Source: a virus. From it: a DNA stretch of 64,000 bases. Where the stretch lies: positions 4,438-68,437 of IMG/VR virus record IMGVR_UViG_3300036715_002236; one strand, written 5' to 3'. The notes beneath the pieces are model-generated. The model made no database searches and was not told the DNA's origin. It was given only the letters and a program-made list of their open reading frames with translations. Made by a program: the position numbers and the translations under genes. Of this stretch, positions 19,167 through 40,499 are shown piece by piece (within the stretch, counting starts at the first letter, position 1; each line of letters opens with the position of its first letter).

Positions 19167-19691
19167 TCAAGCCAAGACCGGCCCCAACCAACTGGCTAGC
19201 CAATAACTCCACTTGTGCTTGAAACGATTTCGGCGGAGATAGTTGTAAGTCTTGGCCATCTTATCCCGAAGGTCGTAGAGTCGCTTGTCCTCAAGCGTGT
19301 AAGTGTTCCCGCGCTTGGTGTTGCACGGAGAGCAGAGAGGTCGCATATTCCACACGTTGTTCTTGCCACCCTTGGAGGCCGGCAGGATGTGGTCTCGGTT
19401 CATCAGAACGTATCCACCGTCGTGCTCGGCATAGAGGTCAAGATGAAGTCCGCCCTTCTGTTCAGAACCGTGGCCCACCTTGTCTTGGGTGAGGATAATC
19501 TTGGTGCCCTCAAGACCACAGAAGACACACTTGCAACCGTGCAGGCCGAACACCTTCATGCGGGTGATGGAATACTTCCGGCCCTCATGCACCAACGTTC
19601 TGCTGTTATCATTGGTCATGGCCCGATGGATAACCTCGTTGACCGGAAGCTCTCCAAGAATCTTGGAGCCGGGATTATGTTTAATCTTCAT
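19167..19691 (-). CDS. HNH endonuclease
   Basis: CVFCG ... DHILPASKGGKNNVWNMRPLCSPCNTKRG. Confidence 0.88.
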   Translation of the reverse strand: MKIKHNPGSKILGELPVNEVIHRAMTNDNSRTLVHEGRKYSITRMKVFGLHGCKCVFCGLEGTKIILTQDKVGHGSEQKGGLHLDLYAEHDGGYVLMNRDHILPASKGGKNNVWNMRPLCSPCNTKRGNTYTLEDKRLYDLRDKMAKTYNYLRRNRFKHKWSYWLASWLGPVLA

Positions 19692-19722
19692 GTGAATTAC
19701 GGTGAGATATTTTTTATAAATG

Positions 19723-20130
19723 TCAAGAAACCTTTTCAACTTTCCAAACATTGACGACCTTAGTAGCCATGTTCGTATTCACAAGGTCATAGACCTCGCC
19801 ATCCTTCACGACAAGCACGTGGCCGTTGACGTGAACCAAATAGGTTCCAACGGAGAACTTGCTCAGAATATACATGAGGGTGCACCCTTCGATGGGAACC
19901 AGAATGAACCGATGACCGAACATGGTTCTCTGACGACCGAGCAGAGCGCCCGTATCAACCCCACGATTTCCTCGAATCTCCGGACGATACAGCTTGGGCT
20001 GTTCACGAACAAGAAGGTATTCCACGTCCTGATAAGAAACCCCGGTGACGAAGCAGATGGAGGTCGGAACACAAGTGCCCCGAATTCCGCGGGGAGCCAA
20101 GTTCTGAATCTTCAGTTGGTTAATAGTCAT
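19723..20130 (-). CDS. papain/C39-like phage protein (related to 45282..45764)
   Basis: TCVPTSI...G-Y; YLVHVNGHVLVVKDGEVYD gives Cys...His...Asp spacing. Confidence 0.5.
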   Translation of the reverse strand: MTINQLKIQNLAPRGIRGTCVPTSICFVTGVSYQDVEYLLVREQPKLYRPEIRGNRGVDTGALLGRQRTMFGHRFILVPIEGCTLMYILSKFSVGTYLVHVNGHVLVVKDGEVYDLVNTNMATKVVNVWKVEKVS

Positions 20131-20173: not shown

Positions 20174-20235
20174 TGGTGGATGGTATCGGATTCGAACCGA
20201 TGACGAAGCGCTCTACCAGACTGAGCTAACCACCC
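20174..20235 (-). ncRNA. anticodon-less tRNA-like RNA (62 nt) with G3:U70, A73 and encoded CCA
   Basis: GGGTGGT TA GCTC AGTCTGGTA GAGC GCTTCGTC ATCGG TTCGAAT CCGAT ACCATCC A CCA. Confidence 0.85.
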
Positions 20236-21513: not shown

Positions 21514-21663
21514 ATGGGAAGAAAAAAACTACATCGAACAAAGGAAGAACTTAATGAACAAATTAGGCAACGATCCAACAGATACTATAAACGAAACAGA
21601 ACAGAAATCTGCAAAAAACGCATGTTGCGGTATTTACGGACTACAGAACAAGCTGAAGCCTGA
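21514..21663 (+). CDS. small basic ORF overlapping GIY-YIG gene (copy 2, 49 aa)
   Basis: MGRKKLHRTKEELNEQIRQRSNRYYKRNRTEICKKRMLRYLRTTEQAEA. Confidence 0.8.
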   Translation: MGRKKLHRTKEELNEQIRQRSNRYYKRNRTEICKKRMLRYLRTTEQAEA

Positions 21664-22354
21664 TAAATGGTATGTCGGACAAAGTTTAAACATCAATGCT
21701 AGATTGAACAAAGCTTATAGGCACGGCCATTGTCAAAAACAACCAAAGATATACAACGCTTTAAAGAAATATGGCTATGACGGTTTTGAAAAAGTTATAT
21801 TAGAAATATGTTTGAGAACTCAACTGGAAGAAAGAGAAATTTTCTGGATAAAAGACAAGAACTCAGTCGAACTTGGATACAACGTATTGTGGGGAGGTAG
21901 GGCTTGTAGTGAAGAAACTATTCAAAAACTTCGTAACTCTTTGAAGGGAAAATTTGTTGGAAAAGATAGGTGGTGGGCATATGGAAGGCAGAGGTCAGAA
22001 GAAACTAAAAGAAGAATTGGACTAGCAAACAAAGGAAAGAAACATACACAATCGTCTAAACAAAAGCTCAGAATAGCTCACACCGGCAAACATCTATCGG
22101 AAGAACATAGGAAAAATCTACGACTGTCTCAGTTGGGCAAAAAACATTCGTTGGAAAGAATAGAAAATATACGAAACTCTCTAACTGGAAAGACTGGAAG
22201 AATAACGTCTGACAAAACCAAGCAGAAAATACGTGATAAACTTAAAGGCAGGGTTATGTCTGAGGAACATAAGGCCAAACTCAGAAAACCTCACAAAGTA
22301 AAGAGAATCCACACAATAATGAGTAATGTCGGCCAAGTCGTAAACAATCCGTAA
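21554..22354 (+). CDS. GIY-YIG homing endonuclease with NUMOD3 repeats
   Basis: GIYGLQN...WYVGQS; GYN; SEETKRRIG and GKKH repeats. Confidence 0.9.
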   Translation: MNKLGNDPTDTINETEQKSAKNACCGIYGLQNKLKPDKWYVGQSLNINARLNKAYRHGHCQKQPKIYNALKKYGYDGFEKVILEICLRTQLEEREIFWIKDKNSVELGYNVLWGGRACSEETIQKLRNSLKGKFVGKDRWWAYGRQRSEETKRRIGLANKGKKHTQSSKQKLRIAHTGKHLSEEHRKNLRLSQLGKKHSLERIENIRNSLTGKTGRITSDKTKQKIRDKLKGRVMSEEHKAKLRKPHKVKRIHTIMSNVGQVVNNP

Positions 22355-22991: not shown

Positions 22992-23321
22992 TTAAGCAGT
23001 GGGAGTGGTGGAGAGGATGTCGGCCGGGCAGGTGACGCGGCCCGTGAAGCGACCAGCCTTGGACTTGTCAACGATAGTGACGACGACCTTGACGGGGTTG
23101 ATTTTCACGACCAGCGCGGCCAGGCCACGAATGTAGCTGGGGTTCGCCGTCTGAACGAAGTAGAGCGTGTCGCCTACCGTGATAGAACGCTTCAGGCGTC
23201 GAGCTTCGATAGCTTTGAGGCCATCGAGACGGAAGTTTAGAGCTTGATTAATGGAAGCAAGGGAAGCATCGAGCTTACCCGAACTAATATCACTGAGGAT
23301 GTCGGTTGAAGTAATGTTCAT
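22992..23321 (-). CDS. hypothetical protein
   Basis: Leaderless ATG after the promoter at 23342-23356. Confidence 0.6.
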   Translation of the reverse strand: MNITSTDILSDISSGKLDASLASINQALNFRLDGLKAIEARRLKRSITVGDTLYFVQTANPSYIRGLAALVVKINPVKVVVTIVDKSKAGRFTGRVTCPADILSTTPTA

Positions 23322-23364
23322 TTGAATAGACTGAAGACTTATTTTATAAATGTCAAGAAAAAGT

Positions 23365-23427
23365 TGGTGAGTGGGACTCGAACCCACAAGTTTTTTCAAA
23401 CTAGCGGCACGTCTACCGGGCTCACTA
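23365..23427 (-). ncRNA. tRNA-like RNA 5 (T-arm, ACCA end, tetraloop hairpin in place of the anticodon arm)
   Basis: GTGAG..GGTAGAC..AGTTT-GAAA-AAACT..GTGGG TTCGAGT CCCAC TCACCA. Confidence 0.6.
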
Positions 23428-23451
23428 TCCAGCTCTATCCACTAAAATAGT

Positions 23452-23578
23452 TGACCGATTGAGGGATTGAACCTTAGAGAGTGCGAGGAGGCTCCCGCCT
23501 TGGCACCAAGCCGCTTTACACTTATGCGGGGAGCAAGTATCTCTCCCACACGCCTACATTTATCTCATTTACCGGCCA
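23452..23578 (-). ncRNA. tRNA-like RNA 4 (acceptor-like stem and T-arm, expanded core)
   Basis: TGGCCGGT pairs with ATCGGTCA; AGG TTCAATC CCT T-arm lies just before the 3' strand. Confidence 0.55.
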
Positions 23579-23585
23579 TAAAGTA

Positions 23586-23662
23586 TCTGCTCCCGAATCG
23601 AACAGTTTTCTGTGTTATACAGCTATAGACCACTACCTCTGGATCCTTGAGGCTTGAGCAAA
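23586..23662 (-). ncRNA. tRNA-like RNA 3
   Basis: TTTGCTC/GAGCAGA closing stem, CCTC-AAGGATCCA-GAGG D-like arm, CTG TTCGATT CGG T-like arm. Confidence 0.5.
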
Positions 23663-23776
23663 AAAATTTTTCGGACTTATACCGCACCCTGACGAACTCC
23701 GGTAAGCCGTTCCTGATTGGCCGTGCTCACCTTGAGAGGTGTTTGCTTCGCGTCAACGAACTTGTTGACGAATGAA

Positions 23777-23890
23777 TCGGTCGTGAGGGGATCGAAACCC
23801 ACTATCGCCGCTAAGCGACACTCCATTCAAAGTAGAGAGAGCATCCTTTATCACTTACCGCGTAGCGGAGTTGTGATACTGCTGACGACC
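23777..23890 (-). ncRNA. tRNA-like RNA 2 (TTG anticodon-like loop, enlarged D-arm, long variable arm)
   Basis: GGTCGT/ACGACC acceptor; AGCA/TGCT D-stem with inserted hairpin; CTCTA CTTTGAA TGGAG; TGTCGCT-TAGC-GGCGATA; GGG TTTCGAT CCC. Confidence 0.65.
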
Positions 23891-23909
23891 AAATTGATGA
23901 TTAGTTCTA

Positions 23910-24086
23910 TGGACGGGGATGGATTCGAGCCACCGACCTCCCCGTGAAAAGGGGCGCTCTGACATCTGCTTCGATTCGCCTTTTGGACTAGAAGTTTGTA
24001 GTCTCGTCTTTCAACGTGGTTACCTGACTAAGCTTTTGGTCCATTCACCACACCTACTGGATTTTGAATCACTGAGCTACCGACGC
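23910..24086 (-). ncRNA. tRNA-like RNA 1 (TTC anticodon-like loop, ~114-nt D-loop)
   Basis: TAGCTCAG ... AGAGC G CCCC TTTTCAC GGGG AGGTC GGTGG CTCGAAT CCATC; acceptor stem pairs poorly. Confidence 0.65.
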
Positions 24087-24104
24087 ACAGAACTTACCAT
24101 TGAC

Positions 24105-24115
24105 TGTTAAAGAAC
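24105..24115 (-). promoter_or_regulatory. boxA-like antitermination element
   Basis: GTTCTTTAACA versus rrn boxA consensus GCTCTTTAACA, just upstream of the tRNA-like RNAs. Confidence 0.55.
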
Positions 24116-24337
24116 TATCCTCAGTTGCTTCCACGCTGAGGAACCGTGGTATTTCATAATGTTCAGTTGACGAGCGGAGTATTTGTATACAGATGGGAGG
24201 CACATCGGCCATCACCCGCAGCGTTTATTTCTCAGCCATCCGAAAGACATCGGAGGTCGATTTCCCGAAGGGTTTCGACTTCATCCAAAGAACAAATCTG
24301 ACGATGACATTTATTTATAAAATGTCAACTAAAAAGA

Positions 24338-24610
24338 TTACTCATTCGAAAGAGTAATCGAACCGTCAAACAGCTCGTGAGAACCGGAACTGATGGCGGG
24401 GAGGAGGAAGACGCTGCCAACCGTGTCGGAACAGCCCACACGATGCAGAACATGCATTGCCTTCTCATGATCCACCTCACAGACCATGCCGATGTAGTAG
24501 CCGATGCCACCAACGGTGCTGGAGTAAGTGAACTTGTAGAGACTGCCAACCTTGAGATCCTTTCGGGTCAGTTTGGCAGCGGGCTTCTTAACAGTATTGA
24601 TAGTAATCAT
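24338..24610 (-). CDS. hypothetical protein
   Basis: Leaderless ATG after promoter. Confidence 0.6.
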   Translation of the reverse strand: MITINTVKKPAAKLTRKDLKVGSLYKFTYSSTVGGIGYYIGMVCEVDHEKAMHVLHRVGCSDTVGSVFLLPAISSGSHELFDGSITLSNE

Positions 24611-24919: not shown

Positions 24920-25630
24920 TCAAGCCTTCAATTCAGGCCTTTTCTTTCTCCACTTCTGATAAACGCCTTTCTTTTTTAAGACTCTACGAATGACATAGGC
25001 GCTTACTCCCAATCGCTTTGCCATTCTTTTTGGTCCACACTCTTGATACATTTTCACTATCGCTTCTTCCATTTCAACATTTACTTGCACAAAGATTTTT
25101 CCTGTTGCGGCTGACCTAAGTTTTTCTCTGTGCTCCTCCGAAACTATTCCACTACTTCTGTTTTTTGATAATCCAGTATCCCAGGTTATTTTTCTGCCCG
25201 ACATCTTGTTGCGCATCATCTCTGTGTGCTCAGTCGTCCACATATTTTTTGTCGTTGTTGTTCTCCACCTTCTAAACTCAGGAGACGCAAATGCCTTTTT
25301 CAGTGACACCGATCTATTTTCTAACATTCTTATTCGGTCTTCTGATGGCATGTTAGTTGTGGTATCTCCGCCGGTTCCCCCGAGAGTTATGTTGTATCCA
25401 ACATTCTTATCAGTCGTATTCAGCTCCCTTACCCAGTAAACTTCTCTTTCTGCTAAATGAGTGAGGGAGCTACATTTTTCTATTGTAATCTTCTCAAAGT
25501 TTTCTTTTCCATACTTCTTTACGGCTCTCCGCAAAAGAGTTCCAGATCCAATATAGCTAGGCCTATTACGGGCATCTTTACCAACATAAATCTTTCCATT
25601 TATTTTATTTCTCGTCTTGTATATTATCAT
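24920..25630 (-). CDS. GIY-YIG homing endonuclease (Seg-like)
   Basis: MIIYKTRNKINGKIYVGK...YIGSG..L..A.KKYG.ENF; GYNITLGGTGG. Confidence 0.9.
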   Translation of the reverse strand: MIIYKTRNKINGKIYVGKDARNRPSYIGSGTLLRRAVKKYGKENFEKITIEKCSSLTHLAEREVYWVRELNTTDKNVGYNITLGGTGGDTTTNMPSEDRIRMLENRSVSLKKAFASPEFRRWRTTTTKNMWTTEHTEMMRNKMSGRKITWDTGLSKNRSSGIVSEEHREKLRSAATGKIFVQVNVEMEEAIVKMYQECGPKRMAKRLGVSAYVIRRVLKKKGVYQKWRKKRPELKA

Positions 25631-25672: not shown

Positions 25673-26773
25673 TTACTTTTTTAGCACTTGGTATATCAAC
25701 TTTTTATAATCTTCTTCATTCAACTGCTTTCCATCAAGTAGCTTGAACGCCATGCCAGACCGATTAGTTTGTCCATAAGCCTGCATGATTGCGGCCGCCG
25801 CGTCTCTCCGAGAGACTCGCTTGAGTGGTGATAGTGGGGCAACAAAATTTTTCATATACGAAACAATCTCTTCAACCTCTTTATGAGCATCGCAGATATT
25901 GGAAATCATACCACGCGCCTCATTAGCAATTTCATAATCAAAAGCTTCTTCACAATAAGCGAAGAACTCTTGATAGGCCGGCTTACCAGCGATTAGCCAA
26001 ACATCCAAAACTTTCTCTATATTGGATAGCTCCGACTTCATTCTATGTTTGCACAAATACTCAGCACCCTTGACCTTACGGATGGACTGACCGTTGTTGT
26101 AGTAAACGCACAGGCCCTCCATACCCTTAAACTGCTCTACAGCATTCTTCATTTCTTCAACAGAAGAATATGAGAACGAACGAGGGCGAGGAACACCCCA
26201 TGCCTTGGCCGTAGTGTCCAGCGAAGTCTGTGTGACGTAGCGGTAGTCTGCGTGGTATATAGCCCCGGTAAGATATAGGATGGGTTCAGTTCCGTAGTCT
26301 ATGACAATTTTGTTTAAAGGGGAGCACCACTCATACACCACAGTCATCTCTTCCGACTCTACCCAACTGTTATTAAACGCTTTTGGATATTTCTGTTTGA
26401 GAATCTCAATTTCCCAACCGTTCAACGGTTGGAGAGAAGCGTCCAATGTTCCGCGGGTGCGAACGATGAGATTTCCTTTGTATTTTGATACGAGCAAAGT
26501 CGAACCATCAATCTTTTCCATCAGTTCTGCGTCTTGAAGAGAAGACGGAATTCCGTCGAGGGAAGGCTGCTCGTCCCAGTTGAAAAATTTCTTCCAAGAC
26601 AGAGAAACAGGAAGACCGTCCTTAGTCCATACAGATGAACGAAATATAAGATTTTCAGGAGTATATTTGGAGCCGATAGAAATTGGTTGAACAAGCACAA
26701 ACTCTTCATTCCCAATGAAATGAGAATGTTTCATAAAGCTGTCTTTGTCGATTTTTTCTAAAGAAATTTTCAT
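25673..26773 (-). CDS. RNA ligase (T4 Rnl1-like)
   Basis: KKFFNWDE, EKIDGSTL (KxDG), YEW, EGLCV, KVKGAEYL. Confidence 0.85.
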   Translation of the reverse strand: MKISLEKIDKDSFMKHSHFIGNEEFVLVQPISIGSKYTPENLIFRSSVWTKDGLPVSLSWKKFFNWDEQPSLDGIPSSLQDAELMEKIDGSTLLVSKYKGNLIVRTRGTLDASLQPLNGWEIEILKQKYPKAFNNSWVESEEMTVVYEWCSPLNKIVIDYGTEPILYLTGAIYHADYRYVTQTSLDTTAKAWGVPRPRSFSYSSVEEMKNAVEQFKGMEGLCVYYNNGQSIRKVKGAEYLCKHRMKSELSNIEKVLDVWLIAGKPAYQEFFAYCEEAFDYEIANEARGMISNICDAHKEVEEIVSYMKNFVAPLSPLKRVSRRDAAAAIMQAYGQTNRSGMAFKLLDGKQLNEEDYKKLIYQVLKK

Positions 26774-27608: not shown

Positions 27609-27927
27609 GTAGTTGAAGTAAAGATACAGAGTGACCTAAGTTTTATAAAATGTCAAGAAGATGTGGAGAGAAACTGTTTGCGGGTGACCTTGATTACCTA
27701 CCAGCAACACGGTGAGCACATGGTTTGAACTTCACCAACTTTCCACCCTTGCTCATGTAGCCTAAGTCACGGAGGATGAGATTCATAACTGTCAACTCAT
27801 GCATGAACAAAAGACCATCAGCCATACCACTCTGTGCGGCGAGGTAGTTGGGAGACTTAAGAAATACGTTGTAAACGGTTTGGGCGATTTGCTTGTTCGT
27901 GAGAATTCCAATGTTTTTCATAAAAAG

Positions 27928-28004
27928 TGGTGGTGCCACCCGGACTTGAACCGGGAACCAATTGCTTAAAAGGCAACTGCTCTAACCAATTGAGCTATGG
28001 CACC
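27928..28004 (-). tRNA. tRNA-Lys(TTT)
   Basis: GGTGCCA TA GCTC AATTGGTTA GAGC A GTTGC CTTTTAA GCAAT TGGTT CCCGG TTCAAGT CCGGG TGGCACC A CCA. Confidence 0.95.
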
Positions 28005-29364: not shown

Positions 29365-30142
29365 GGTTGGCTTGAGAATACAGCGTTCCTCGATACATCT
29401 TTCATGGGATTATAGATTCCCCATTTTTCCATCATCCTTTCGGACGGTAATGTTCATGGTTGCCTTTTTCGTATCAGGCGATAGACTCTCTCTTAAACTA
29501 CTCGACACCTTTTTCAACTGTCTATGGGAGCTACCCACAAACGAGCCTACTCGTTGTATCAAACCTAAATGACCTTGCGAGCCACCTAAGCTCTCCATTC
29601 CTTTCGGTGGAGACTTTAACCACTTACGTTTAAGAGGATTACAGTGCTTGTGCTTTTAATTTCCATTAATAGTAGAATTGCCTTGCGGCTTCCAAAAACG
29701 ATGTGCTGTAATGATGGCCGGTTTCCCTTTTGGAGAACCCGATACCACCCACCGCCATACCTTTCCCTTGCGAGGACTTGGGCCGTTCTAATCGAATGAG
29801 CAGCTGGTCGTAACCAACGTCACCGACTCTAACTGGATTAACCCACTTGGCTGCAAAACCTCGCAGTATAATCCTTACGCTTCAGCTTACTTCCTCGTCG
29901 GGTGTTGTGCTTTTCTCCAAGATGCCATCTTGATATTTTCCCTCAACCACTTGGTCGTCAGGATTTCGACTAGAGAACTGCTCCGACTTCGGACCTACTC
30001 CTACCTATTAGTAGAAGCGAGAGCCTACGCTTGTATAACTGACCGCGATGCGGCGACAGTGTTTGGAACACCGCCTTTCCCTACCTTTCGATAGACGTAT
30101 CTTTACCAACCCTTGCGAGCTGGAAGGACATCATACTGCCCT
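29365..30142 (-). ncRNA. large structured ncRNA, GOLLD-like (~780 nt)
   Basis: No credible ORF; many GCAA/GAAA tetraloop hairpins and AGTA motifs on the minus strand; 3' GCTGTATTCTCAAG; lies after a tRNA-like gene and a boxA; family assignment from memory only. Confidence 0.65.
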
Positions 30143-30171
30143 TAAATTGTTAAACTGTAAAAGAACTAAAT

Positions 30172-30243
30172 TGGAGCGAATCTACGATTTGATACGTAAC
30201 CTCTCTACGGTTGTAGAGTGTGCTAACATACACCAGCCTTCGC
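30172..30243 (-). ncRNA. degenerate tRNA-like RNA with CCA and a 4-nt anticodon loop
   Basis: GCGAA/TTCGC acceptor, GTGT/GCAC D-stem, CTCTAC-AACC-GTAGAG, TTACG/CGTAG T-stem, T CCA. Confidence 0.6.
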
Positions 30244-30306
30244 GTAACTGACTGAACTTATGACTATGACAGGTAGTTTATAAATGTCAAGCCTTTCGAC
30301 TAACTA

Positions 30307-33300: not shown

Positions 33301-33444
33301 ATGGGAAGAAAGAAATTACATCGAACAAAAGAAGAGAAAAATGAACAACATCGAATCCGTTCCGCTAGATACTATGAGAGAAACAGAGCCAAAGTCTGTG
33401 AAAGAGTCATGCTGCGGTATCTACGGATTAAGAAACAAGCTTAA
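33301..33444 (+). CDS. small basic ORF overlapping GIY-YIG gene (copy 3, 47 aa)
   Basis: MGRKKLHRTKEEKNEQHRIRSARYYERNRAKVCERVMLRYLRIKKQA. Confidence 0.8.
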   Translation: MGRKKLHRTKEEKNEQHRIRSARYYERNRAKVCERVMLRYLRIKKQA

Positions 33445-34279
33445 CGAAAAATGGTATGTTGGGCAGAGCTTGGATATGCACAAGCGTTGGTTGAATGACT
33501 ACAAACGAATGAAGTGTTCTCGCCAACCAAAAATTTACAATGCTCTCAAAAAATATGGCTACGATGGATTTGACAAGGTGATATTGGAGGAATGTCCAAA
33601 CGATATTAATTTTTTGAATCGGAGAGAAATTTTTTGGATAAAATATTACAATTCTATGTTGAACGGATATAATCTTACCGGAGGAGGTGGAGCAAAAGGA
33701 ACATACTCACCTGAATCAATTGAAAAAATGAGAAATGCCCAACTGGGGAAGAATCATACGGAAGAAACAAAAGAAAAAATCAGAAAAATTACCACTGGAA
33801 AAAAACAATCTAACGAAACAATATCGAAGAGAAAGTATTCAAATAAGAATTTCAAACACACTGAGACATCGAAGCGAAAAATGTCCATCTTAGCTACCGG
33901 AAGAAAACATACAGAACAGACGAAGAAAAAATTATCTGAGATGCAAATGGGTCGGATTCGTTCTCCTCGTTCCGAAGAAACAAAGCGAAGAATCAGTGAA
34001 GCAAAATTGGGATGGAATCCTTCAACCGAAACACGAATGAATATGAGTAAGGGTCAAAAAGGAAGAATTTTTTCCGACGAACATCGACGGAAAATATCTC
34101 AGAGTGTAAAAGGAAAAATTATGCCAATTGAGGCGATAGAGAAAATTCGTCAATGGAATCTTGGAAGAAAATGTTCCGAAGAATCAAAAAAGAAAATGAG
34201 TGAGTCCCGAAAAAAATATTTGGAGAGAAAAAAAGGGATAGCGAATTCCACTTCGCCAGAGCCCCTGCTCTCAAAGTAA
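33341..34279 (+). CDS. GIY-YIG homing endonuclease with multiple NUMOD3 repeats
   Basis: GIYGLRN...WYVGQS; GYNLTGGG; HTEETKEKIR-type repeats. Confidence 0.9.
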   Translation: MNNIESVPLDTMRETEPKSVKESCCGIYGLRNKLNEKWYVGQSLDMHKRWLNDYKRMKCSRQPKIYNALKKYGYDGFDKVILEECPNDINFLNRREIFWIKYYNSMLNGYNLTGGGGAKGTYSPESIEKMRNAQLGKNHTEETKEKIRKITTGKKQSNETISKRKYSNKNFKHTETSKRKMSILATGRKHTEQTKKKLSEMQMGRIRSPRSEETKRRISEAKLGWNPSTETRMNMSKGQKGRIFSDEHRRKISQSVKGKIMPIEAIEKIRQWNLGRKCSEESKKKMSESRKKYLERKKGIANSTSPEPLLSK

Positions 34280-39816: not shown

Positions 39817-40452
39817 TTAAGTCCTTGATAACAAAGCTCTTCTGGTTTCAGCAGCAGCCCAATCTTCGGGTGTTGGCCACTCCGGTTCGAGTCCAGCTTC
39901 AATTTCCCACGGTTCCATTTCATTGTCATCTGTTTTATGTATAGGTTTTTGCGACATCCACAATTTCACCGTAGGAGTCAGTAATTTCCAACCCTTTCCA
40001 GATTTTGACTTTTCTAATATTGAGATAGTGTGATAACGTCGGATTTTTTTCTGGGAGGAAAGCTCGTAACATGTTCCTGTGAACAGTTCTCCCGATTTGT
40101 GTATAAACGTGTAAACTCCCAATGGATAATCTTTTTCGTTTTTTGGACAAGGGCAAGAAGCGTCGAATTTGAGATTGTAAACTTTTGATTTTTCAAATTT
40201 TGCAACATCCAGATATTTTTGTTCCACAACCAGCAACTCTACTTCTGTAAGATGTGGAAGTTCCTCAACAACGATAAATTTGAAGCCTGCTTCACCGTGT
40301 AAGTTCCACGCATTCTGTAACTTAGCGTTTCTGTGCTTATTGTTGCGGAGGGTATATCTGTGGCCATATCGCCAACGTTCTTCCATCTGTATAGAGCTAC
40401 CAACATAATATTTTTCACTTTCAATGTGGACAATTTTGTATATTCCTTTCAT
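39817..40452 (-). CDS. GIY-YIG homing endonuclease
   Basis: MKGIYKIV...YYVGSS...H...LRNNKHRNAKLQNAWN..G. Confidence 0.88.
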   Translation of the reverse strand: MKGIYKIVHIESEKYYVGSSIQMEERWRYGHRYTLRNNKHRNAKLQNAWNLHGEAGFKFIVVEELPHLTEVELLVVEQKYLDVAKFEKSKVYNLKFDASCPCPKNEKDYPLGVYTFIHKSGELFTGTCYELSSQKKIRRYHTISILEKSKSGKGWKLLTPTVKLWMSQKPIHKTDDNEMEPWEIEAGLEPEWPTPEDWAAAETRRALLSRT

Positions 40453-40499
40453 GATCATAAATATAAATCAATTTTGATTATCAACGACTTATATGAGTA

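Follow-up and report, generated by a model that had tools for sequence, protein, structure and literature searches.

An untranslated stable-RNA unit with tRNA-derived modules in a tRNA-cluster slot of a phage contig

The non-coding unit, its promoter and its genomic slot

The DNA analyzed here, referred to as the window, comprises 64 kilobases (kb; 64,000 nucleotides, nt) of a 68-kb IMG/VR phage contig (IMGVR_UViG_3300036715_002236) with an estimated completeness of 48%. Our subject is a stretch of its minus strand, 23340-24330, which is a real non-coding unit: behind a phage promoter and a leader RNA it holds five transfer RNA (tRNA)-like units, referred to as U1 to U5, and one further hairpin unit. 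Nearly all genes of the window lie on the minus strand behind a recurring promoter-like motif, TTGACATTT(T)ATAAA(A), which is present in 36 copies at no more than two mismatches (0.76 expected), and in 35/41 motif copies an ATG lies 34-35 nt from the T of TTGACA. The copy at 24314-24328 (minus strand, TTGACATTTTATAAA) matches the consensus perfectly and has no ATG at offset 34-35, the closest being at offset 44, just as a preliminary description of the stretch had said of this promoter. The unit ends at the next promoter motif (23342-23356, minus strand), which has its ATG at 23321. Between the two motifs (24328-24314 and 23356-23342) there is no credible open reading frame (ORF), as had also been noted for these ~950 nt, and a tblastx comparison with 87 loci found no conserved reading frame within the stretch. 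The fixed ATG offset of 34-35 nt leaves no space for a Shine-Dalgarno leader at the 41 motif sites, which are mostly on the minus strand; two copies, at 27656 (before an ORF of 217 amino acids) and 26821 (before the ligase gene described below), have in common a longer conserved 5' untranslated region with the ATG at 48.

In the unit, the position that the ATG takes in other genes, 33 nt from the start of TTGACA, is filled by a boxA-like sequence, TTGTTCTTT (24287-24295, minus strand). A second boxA-like site, AGTTCTTTAACAG (24104-24116, minus strand), lies directly 3' of a boxB-like hairpin, CCUCAG...CUGAGG (24119-24141, minus strand). The second site is the one that had been described before, and the first adds to it. 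Both agree at 7/9 positions with the rrn boxA of E. coli, UGCUCUUUA (PMC2724277), and the second also has the ACA of the rrn spacer as given in the same source. Their closeness to UGCUCUUUA, their place in the 5' part of what would be a stable-RNA transcript and, for the second, the preceding boxB hairpin are what is expected of an rrn-type boxA. The arrangement thus resembles the rrn boxB-boxA antitermination leaders as described in PMC2724277, in which a hairpin and then a U-rich boxA near UGCUCUUUA precede stable RNA genes; unlike those leaders, it is phage-borne here, and it recurs ahead of many separate RNA genes, always at a distance of 33 nt from the promoter.

This promoter with a boxA at +33 was found at eight sites in the window and the related viral loci. 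It precedes tRNA-Lys or tRNA-Thr genes in two of these loci (L084 and L003) and other non-coding RNAs in two more (L002 and L010), and in seven metagenome loci it is followed by a tRNA-Lys gene within 48 nt. Further, a CAATTT-GTTCTTT element behind a hairpin precedes the GOLLD RNA of the window (30173) and non-coding RNAs in L002, L003, and L010. From its sequence contexts, we read the promoter-boxA module as this phage group's mark of stable-RNA genes, and the boxA-like sites may bind Nus factors. The long untranslated transcript is probably antiterminated.

The stretch lies downstream of a gene for an Rnl1 RNA ligase (25673-26773; Pfam PF09511, E 6e-18; PHROG 562, E 6e-36), which ends 1345 nt upstream of it, in agreement with the 1.3 kb reported before. 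Searching with the ligase yielded 790 proteins at E<=1e-10. Those available in JGI/IMG reach ~55% identity at most, whereas 65% is reached (P0002) only in Logan assemblies, which also supply P0003 and P0007 at 61-63%. An alignment of 40 of these proteins (A1) led to 80 viral loci with ligases of 44-55% identity. Related-locus searches with the ligase alone and with the downstream ORF of 107 amino acids alone returned no relatives. Upstream of the ligase gene, transfer-messenger RNA (tmRNA) is present in 20/60 loci scanned, and GOLLD in L002 (5879-6270), L003 (7950-8342), and the window (29369-30290, minus strand). Downstream of it, L003 has tRNA-Arg, tRNA-Ile, a non-coding RNA of 380 nt, and tRNA-Lys; L035 has tRNA-Thr, tRNA-Glu, and tRNA-Ala together with non-coding RNAs; and L002 has the promoter, a boxA, and a 129-nt tRNA shell. 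In all three loci, a distance of 0.9-1.3 kb separates rnl1 from these downstream tRNA or tRNA-like genes. Since the relatives hold tRNAs or other RNAs at this place, the stretch occupies a conserved stable-RNA slot, the content of which varies by phage. That it is one untranslated stable-RNA transcription unit under one promoter, in a tRNA-cluster slot, is well supported.

The RNA genes of the window recognized by Rfam at gathering thresholds are GOLLD (29369-29757) and a tRNA-Lys (27931-28004), and ARAGORN in default mode calls the tRNA-Lys (27928-28004) only. The GOLLD gene has its own promoter, leader hairpin and boxA-like site, and lies 2.6 kb upstream of rnl1. Elsewhere in the window, the stretch has no copies or antisense matches except promoter copies and chance 12-14-mers, and blastn against 50,697 phage records found no nucleotide relatives of either the window or the stretch. 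The stretch is present in four sequencing runs, from microbial-mat and sediment metagenomes; all four are DNA runs, with no RNA run among those listed, and wherever their contigs overlap the window the identity is 100%, so that the runs provide no variants.

The leader RNA

The unit begins with a structured leader RNA of ~190 nt (24100-24301, minus strand), predicted to adopt a multibranch fold with three hairpins followed by the boxB-like hairpin. Among 70 metagenome loci collected by a scan for the promoter and boxA pattern, a single one, L144, matches the stretch, and it does so in the leader alone: L144:688-897 is 85.8% identical over 212 nt to window positions 24329-24119, from the promoter to the boxB-like hairpin. 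At the protein level, L144 and the window have nothing in common. RNAalifold on the two leaders predicts 46 pairs, with two compensatory changes, five one-sided changes, and no broken pair; an outer helix includes the first boxA, three hairpins lie within it, and after these comes the boxB-like hairpin, which L144 retains with two changes, one of them compensatory and the other one-sided. The two leaders differ at 9 of 92 paired columns vs. 20 of 93 unpaired ones. This pattern is suggestive of conservation as a structured RNA, judged from two sequences and on a structure derived from the same two.

A translated leader or micro-protein is a very improbable reading of the same sequence. The window and L144 both have an open frame of 19 residues, from the ATG at offset 44 (24284) to a TAA, with the stop at the identical position; however, an open frame of 19 codons is expected by chance ~40% of the time, the ATG is off the fixed 34-35 offset of this phage, and 4/6 changed codons are non-synonymous. 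Moreover, a U-A to A-U double change that preserves hairpin P2 alters two codons, which fits constraint on the RNA.

Other members of the leader family were sought by several routes. A covariance model (R1) run on 76 sources, which did not cover the other ligase loci, matched only its two training sequences, and no matches came from scanning viral contigs with two leader patterns or genome contigs with one. The promoter and boxA pattern found seven loci in viral contigs, four of them chance matches inside genes and three already known contigs. When the leader, U1-U5, and the hairpin unit were compared with the 80 ligase loci by blastn and nhmmer, promoter matches only were obtained.

The homology to L144 stops at 24119. 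Beyond its leader, L144 has other non-coding sequence, an ORF, a tRNA-Lys-like gene (L144:1330-1404), and an RNA that starts with the first 11 nt of U2 (L144:1417-1517), within which the contig ends. The tRNA-Lys-like gene is 76% identical to the tRNA-Lys of the window, is not called by ARAGORN, and has 3' and 5' acceptor strands that fail to pair with each other. In the RNA that follows, the 11-mer is preceded by CAATTT, as it is at U2, and it recurs only in L144. The U2 5' motif had 19 matches in viral contigs, in unrelated contexts, none of which matched any unit by nhmmer, and a motif common to U2, L144, and the tRNA-Lys of L003 (TAGCGGCG) was set aside as too frequent to be informative.

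The tRNA-derived modules

The preliminary description had divided the remainder of the stretch into five units, each with a T-loop arm next to an acceptor-like closing stem. The boundaries of the five agree with features of the sequence. To grade the T-arms we defined a strict T-arm by 5/5 pairs, at least three of them G-C, a G53-C61 pair, and a YTCRA loop. Strict T-arms are present in U1 and U5, and U4 has 4/5 pairs beside a 7/7 closing stem, so that for these three the earlier account holds in part; U2 and U3 have 3-base pair (bp) T-like hairpins only.

U1 (23910-24086, minus strand) consists of a tRNA-like 5' start, an insert of ~120 nt, and a tRNA-like 3' part. By inspection, the start reads as acceptor strand, UA, D-stem GCUC, and AGU; after the insert follow GAGC (the 3' strand of the D-stem), a Glu-type anticodon arm (loop UUUUCAC, stem of 4-5 bp), AGGUC, and the strict T-arm with C54, which leads into the 3' acceptor strand. 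The closing stem pairs at 5/7 positions, with two mismatches. A profile of 41 tRNAs from the related loci matches the 3'-terminal 55 nt at tRNA positions 16-72 (E 0.018), and U1 also aligned to the tRNA-Glu genes of relatives.

U2 (23777-23890, minus strand) has a closing stem of 6 bp (6/7), a discriminator G, a long hairpin in the place of the D-arm, a Gln-type anticodon arm (loop CUUUGAA, 5 bp), a variable-arm hairpin, and a defective T-arm of 3 bp with an 8-nt loop. With their anticodon arms, U1 and U2 might be working tRNA-Glu(UUC) and tRNA-Gln(UUG) with insertions that are tolerated, or removed by cleavage and rejoining by Rnl1, which lies 1.3 kb away. Their anticodon loops are canonical at 7 nt, with U33 and a purine at 37, the discriminator G of U2 agrees with the identity rule of tRNA-Gln, and the relatives have U34 tRNAs for Lys, Glu, Thr, and Arg. 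Against this stand the two mismatches in the acceptor of U1, the defective T-arm of U2 and its lack of a D-loop GG for the elbow, the absence from both units of an encoded CCA and of any tRNA model match, and the absence of a splicing endonuclease or Pnkp among the 30 ORFs scanned in Pfam on a contig that is 48% of a genome. Working tRNAs are thus highly unlikely.

Between U2 and U3 lies the hairpin unit (23670-23775, minus strand), which is without tRNA features and ends in a run of seven T. U3 (23586-23662, minus strand) is a mini-cloverleaf of 77 nt: it has a closing stem of 7 bp (7/7, one G-U) and three hairpins, two of 4 bp and one of 3 bp, the last with the loop TTCGATT. Its shell fold, computed with the acceptor and T-arm enforced as for all units, reaches -16.0 kcal/mol, little different from the minimum free energy (-16.2 kcal/mol). 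In U4 (23453-23577, minus strand), a 7/7 closing stem, GGCCGGU/AUCGGUC, lies beside the 4/5 T-arm (loop TTCAATC) and encloses 94 nt; its shell fold is likewise near the minimum (-39.1 vs. -40.7 kcal/mol). U5 (23364-23445, minus strand) has a perfect T-arm, GTGGGTTCGAGTCCCAC, and an imperfect acceptor (5-6/7) with two candidate 5' strands, at 23427 and 23445. The T-arm matches the profile of the related-loci tRNAs (E 0.0009). Anticodon arms in U3-U5 are absent or doubtful, and the case for U2 and U3 as tRNA mimics rests on inspection; for U3, which has a fold z-score of -0.19 and no Rfam match, it is weak.

None of the five was called by ARAGORN in default mode. With Rfam at E<=10, U5 alone was matched, by the tRNA-Sec model (20.6 bits, E 0.45), which gives it a 9-bp acceptor with two mismatches and a 4-bp T-stem, a split absent from the other units. 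We took a covariance-model score of at least 29 bits (Rfam RF00005) or a default ARAGORN call as the mark of a canonical tRNA, and U1-U5 have neither. An encoded CCA is present in 0/5 units vs. 58/61 ARAGORN-called tRNAs of the window and loci. Because the tools reject them and they lack CCA, U1-U5 are not ordinary tRNA genes of these phages. ARAGORN was also run in its intron and mitochondrial modes, which gave noise-level calls.

The density of strict T-arms bears on whether the units arose by chance. In 1.17 Mb of window and loci there are 74 strict T-arms, 60 in called tRNAs or tmRNAs and 14 orphans. Of the orphans, 11 fall where long ORFs are absent (16% of the sequence), and the remaining three include two sites of the window that only spurious ORFs overlap. 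With 14 orphans in 1.17 Mb, the two of U1 and U5 within 0.97 kb are not due to chance. That the modules are tRNA-derived and unable to be decoding tRNAs is well supported.

The fold z-scores of the modules are mixed: -2.55 for U2, -1.89 for U5, and -1.68 for U4, and -2.89 for the hairpin unit, with 3/200 shuffles folding equally well. A picture of five uniform shells is too tidy. Of the five, U3 and U4 alone fold as shells near minimum energy. The earlier reading of the stretch as a stable-RNA operon stands as to the one promoter, the boxA signals, the tRNA-derived modules, and the nearby Rnl1 ligase, while five discrete mimics that each display a payload exceed the evidence.

Remodeled tRNA shells are also present in related phages. 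Directly behind the promoter and boxA of L002 lies the 129-nt shell mentioned above (L002:12096-12224), in which a perfect 7-bp acceptor and a 5-bp T-arm surround 98 nt; it scores 26.5 bits against the Rfam tRNA model (E 0.006) and at minimum energy folds into the shell. A similar shell with a replaced core in L010 (L010:14705-14836) also folds as a shell at minimum energy. These replaced-core shells behind the same promoter and boxA, and the ~190-nt structured leader, are new.

In the window itself, a tRNA of 62 nt without an anticodon arm (20174-20235, minus strand) lies between the stop of an ORF and the next promoter. It consists of acceptor, D-arm, a 7-nt linker, and T-arm, with G3:U70, A73, and an encoded CCA; its minimum-energy fold is the armless cloverleaf, and it reaches 44.3 bits with the Rfam tRNA model (E 1.3e-8), having been missed by ARAGORN and by the gathering-threshold scan.

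Possible origins and fates of the modules

From these features the following course of events is proposed. Transcription would start at the consensus phage promoter (24328-24314), and the boxA-like sites would probably recruit host Nus factors, such that the long untranslated transcript escapes Rho termination. The first ~190 nt would fold into the multibranch leader, conserved to judge from the comparison with one homologue, and the remaining ~750 nt would form the tRNA-derived modules, U1 and U2 retaining the Glu- and Gln-type anticodon arms and U3, U4, and U5 an acceptor-like stem stacked on a T-arm. Host RNase P, RNase Z, or RNase E may then cut at the shells, giving several small RNAs that might act outside decoding, for instance as decoys or scaffolds for tRNA-binding proteins. 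We give roughly even chances to the proposal that tRNA-end enzymes excise the modules, which then work as non-decoding RNAs. It is favored because of the intact T-arms, the expansion of the units, the recurrence of remodeled shells in relatives, and the uniform absence of CCA.

A number of results weigh against this proposal. U1-U4 have no Rfam match at E<=10, even when scanned in small windows (206 nt for U1, 461 nt for U2-U4), and calls obtained with relaxed ARAGORN settings (U2 at the 80% threshold, and U5) are noise, with 37 calls in the window vs. 23-38 in shuffles. Shells with a 7/7 closure within 260 nt came to 32 rows not called by ARAGORN vs. 10-20 in shuffles, with many rows duplicated between near-identical loci, and we rejected this count as evidence, the raw count being not above the shuffles; one such closure on its own can readily arise by chance. 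As to the folds, the shell of U1 (-23.5 kcal/mol) is 21 kcal/mol worse than the minimum free energy (-44.7 kcal/mol), that of U2 lies 13 kcal/mol above the minimum, and that of U5 5.7 to 9 kcal/mol above it; the z-scores of U1 (+0.52) and U3 are near 0, as is that of the leader alone, and that of the whole stretch is -1.15. The acceptor halves of U1 do not match, as in the tRNA-Lys-like gene of L144, and resemble recombination debris. The second boxA-like site is without conservation in L144. Finally, blastn and nhmmer found no homologues of U1-U5 in the 80 ligase, 70 metagenome, and 26 pattern loci (~170 in all), and therefore the units show neither covariation nor signs of purifying selection, while GOLLD and the tRNA-Lys of the window keep 72-77% identity to their relatives.

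The stretch may instead be a decaying tRNA cluster: a functional promoter or leader RNA, followed by transcribed tRNA pseudogenes and recombination chimeras, perhaps made via nearby homing endonucleases, with no function of their own. We regard this as a serious rival, possible if on the unlikely side. Every unit retains a different part of a tRNA with the rest lost, CCA is missing in all five, and no unit is conserved in any relative, while GOLLD and tRNA-Lys are. The chimeric acceptor halves of U1 and of the broken L144 gene fit decay as well as design. In addition, the slot of relatives is filled by canonical tRNAs (58-60 bits in L003 and 63-75 bits in L035), and genes for GIY-YIG endonucleases border the RNA region (24920-25630 and 21554-22354) and are a possible origin of chimeric tRNA pieces. 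On the other hand, ~750 nt of dead DNA after a perfect promoter and a boxA would be unusual in a phage. The units exceed tRNA length, and U1, U2, and U4 appear expanded rather than shortened, which would be unusual for neutral decay in a compact phage genome. The T-arms of U1 and U5 and the closing stem of U4 are intact, replaced-core shells with perfect stems recur in L002 and L010, and U2 and the hairpin unit fold better than shuffles.

Altogether, a span of 21 kb contains five endonuclease genes, four of the GIY-YIG and one of the HNH type, and two of the five flank the RNA region; the set is located at 21554-22354 (plus strand), 24920-25630 (minus), 33341-34279 (plus), 39817-40458 (minus), and 19167-19751 (minus).

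The whole-stretch minimum-energy fold pairs distant parts, which would be expected if the ~750 nt were one or two large ornate RNAs of the GOLLD/ROOL class with T-loops as tertiary modules. This phage has a GOLLD 5 kb upstream with a similar leader and boxA, and GOLLD and ROOL are described near phage tRNA islands (bioRxiv 10.1101/2024.12.08.627333). We nevertheless hold it to be quite unlikely: no GOLLD, ROOL, or other large-RNA family of Rfam matches the stretch at E<=10, the GOLLD at 29369-29757 being the only one; the z-score of the whole region is modest (-1.15, as above); there are no homologues from which to define a fold; and the 3' part of U1 is collinear with a tRNA from D-loop to acceptor, which argues for tRNA descent and not for isolated T-loops.

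Among known systems, the closest published parallel to tRNA-derived non-decoding modules, as far as it is described in the source, is provided by the polycistrons of irregular tRNAs or allo-tRNAs, with several non-canonical tRNA-like RNAs per transcript (Mukai et al., 2017; PMC5389517). Some of the irregular tRNAs occur in tRNA clusters of uncultured phages and were proposed to be regulatory non-coding RNAs (PMC5389517). Those RNAs, as described there, retain the whole cloverleaf, with an anticodon and a 12-bp acceptor/T branch split 8/4 or 9/3, whereas the cores here have 40-120 nt extra or arms missing, and no CCA is encoded. In tmRNA, an acceptor stem is likewise stacked on a T-arm around a long insert that replaces the anticodon arm. 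Neither ARAGORN nor the Rfam tmRNA models at E<=10 found a tmRNA in the stretch, and unlike tmRNA, U1-U5 have no tag reading frame and no G3:U70 with CCA, and are far shorter. As plain precedent, viral tRNA operons also give small non-tRNA RNAs via tRNA-processing enzymes, namely RNAs C and D of T4 and the tRNA-miRNA units of MHV68; these serve as a comparison and are without sequence relation to the stretch.

YrlA and other bacterial Y RNAs also combine a non-coding RNA with a tRNA-like module (Chen et al., 2014; PMC4201824). According to what is described there, YrlA can be acted on by RNase P and the CCA-adding enzyme, is found in phages as well, and is linked to RNA-repair loci. Its topology as described is opposite, with the Ro-binding stem built from the ends of the RNA and the acceptor-like stem present as a closed hairpin (PMC4201824). 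No YrlA match (Rfam RF02553) was found in 23100-24600, and no TROVE/Rsr gene (PF05731) was found on the 68-kb contig, which is 48% complete. A further comparison is with phage tRNAs that escape anticodon nucleases (van den Berg et al., 2023; PMC10264068), where phage-borne copies of U34 tRNAs likewise occur. Here, Lys(UUU) is a real tRNA, Glu(UUC) and Gln(UUG) are present as the anticodon arms of U1 and U2, and a ligase of tRNA-repair type adjoins. The nuclease-evading tRNAs are intact and chargeable with a changed anticodon loop, whereas U1 and U2 have canonical loops and broken bodies.

A wider version of the proposal would have this group of large phages with GOLLD or tmRNA use the acceptor/T-arm shell as a general cassette: behind one promoter and boxA would stand shells with swapped cores, together with arms-only pieces that bear anticodon loops of the Glu, Gln, and Lys families, and host RNase P and RNase Z would cut out products that serve as decoys for tRNA-cleaving defence nucleases or as clients of a GOLLD nanocage or of Rnl1. 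In the account of GOLLD cited above, GOLLD usually lies near tRNA islands, and its nanocage is suggested to hold phage tRNAs (bioRxiv 10.1101/2024.12.08.627333). We regard the cassette as doubtful; if true, it would be a phage non-coding RNA system new to description. Should the units be processed and functional in the narrower sense, phage tRNA genes would be the raw material of a family of non-decoding RNAs, transcribed with rRNA-style antitermination beside an RNA ligase and a GOLLD RNA, which would offer a handle on why large phages keep tRNA islands and on what GOLLD-type RNAs work with. Should they be relics, the locus would still show stable-RNA genes marked by a fixed promoter-boxA module, and a ~190-nt leader RNA that moves between otherwise unrelated phages.

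Standard tRNA finders miss about one-fifth of the T-arm-bearing genes in these loci (14/74 strict T-arms). Two further tRNA-like units that end in CCA and have no ARAGORN call are present in L027 (1212-1287 and 1296-1383) and, identically, in L032; one of the two combines an Arg(UCU)-type anticodon arm with a long variable region and lacks a D-arm, and in the other the D and anticodon arms are replaced and the variable hairpin is GNRA-capped. Right after the promoter and boxA of two other loci, L133 and L137, there is by eye what seems to be a bare tRNA minihelix, a 5-bp stem around a T-arm-like hairpin, GCAAG-TTCGACA-CTTGC.

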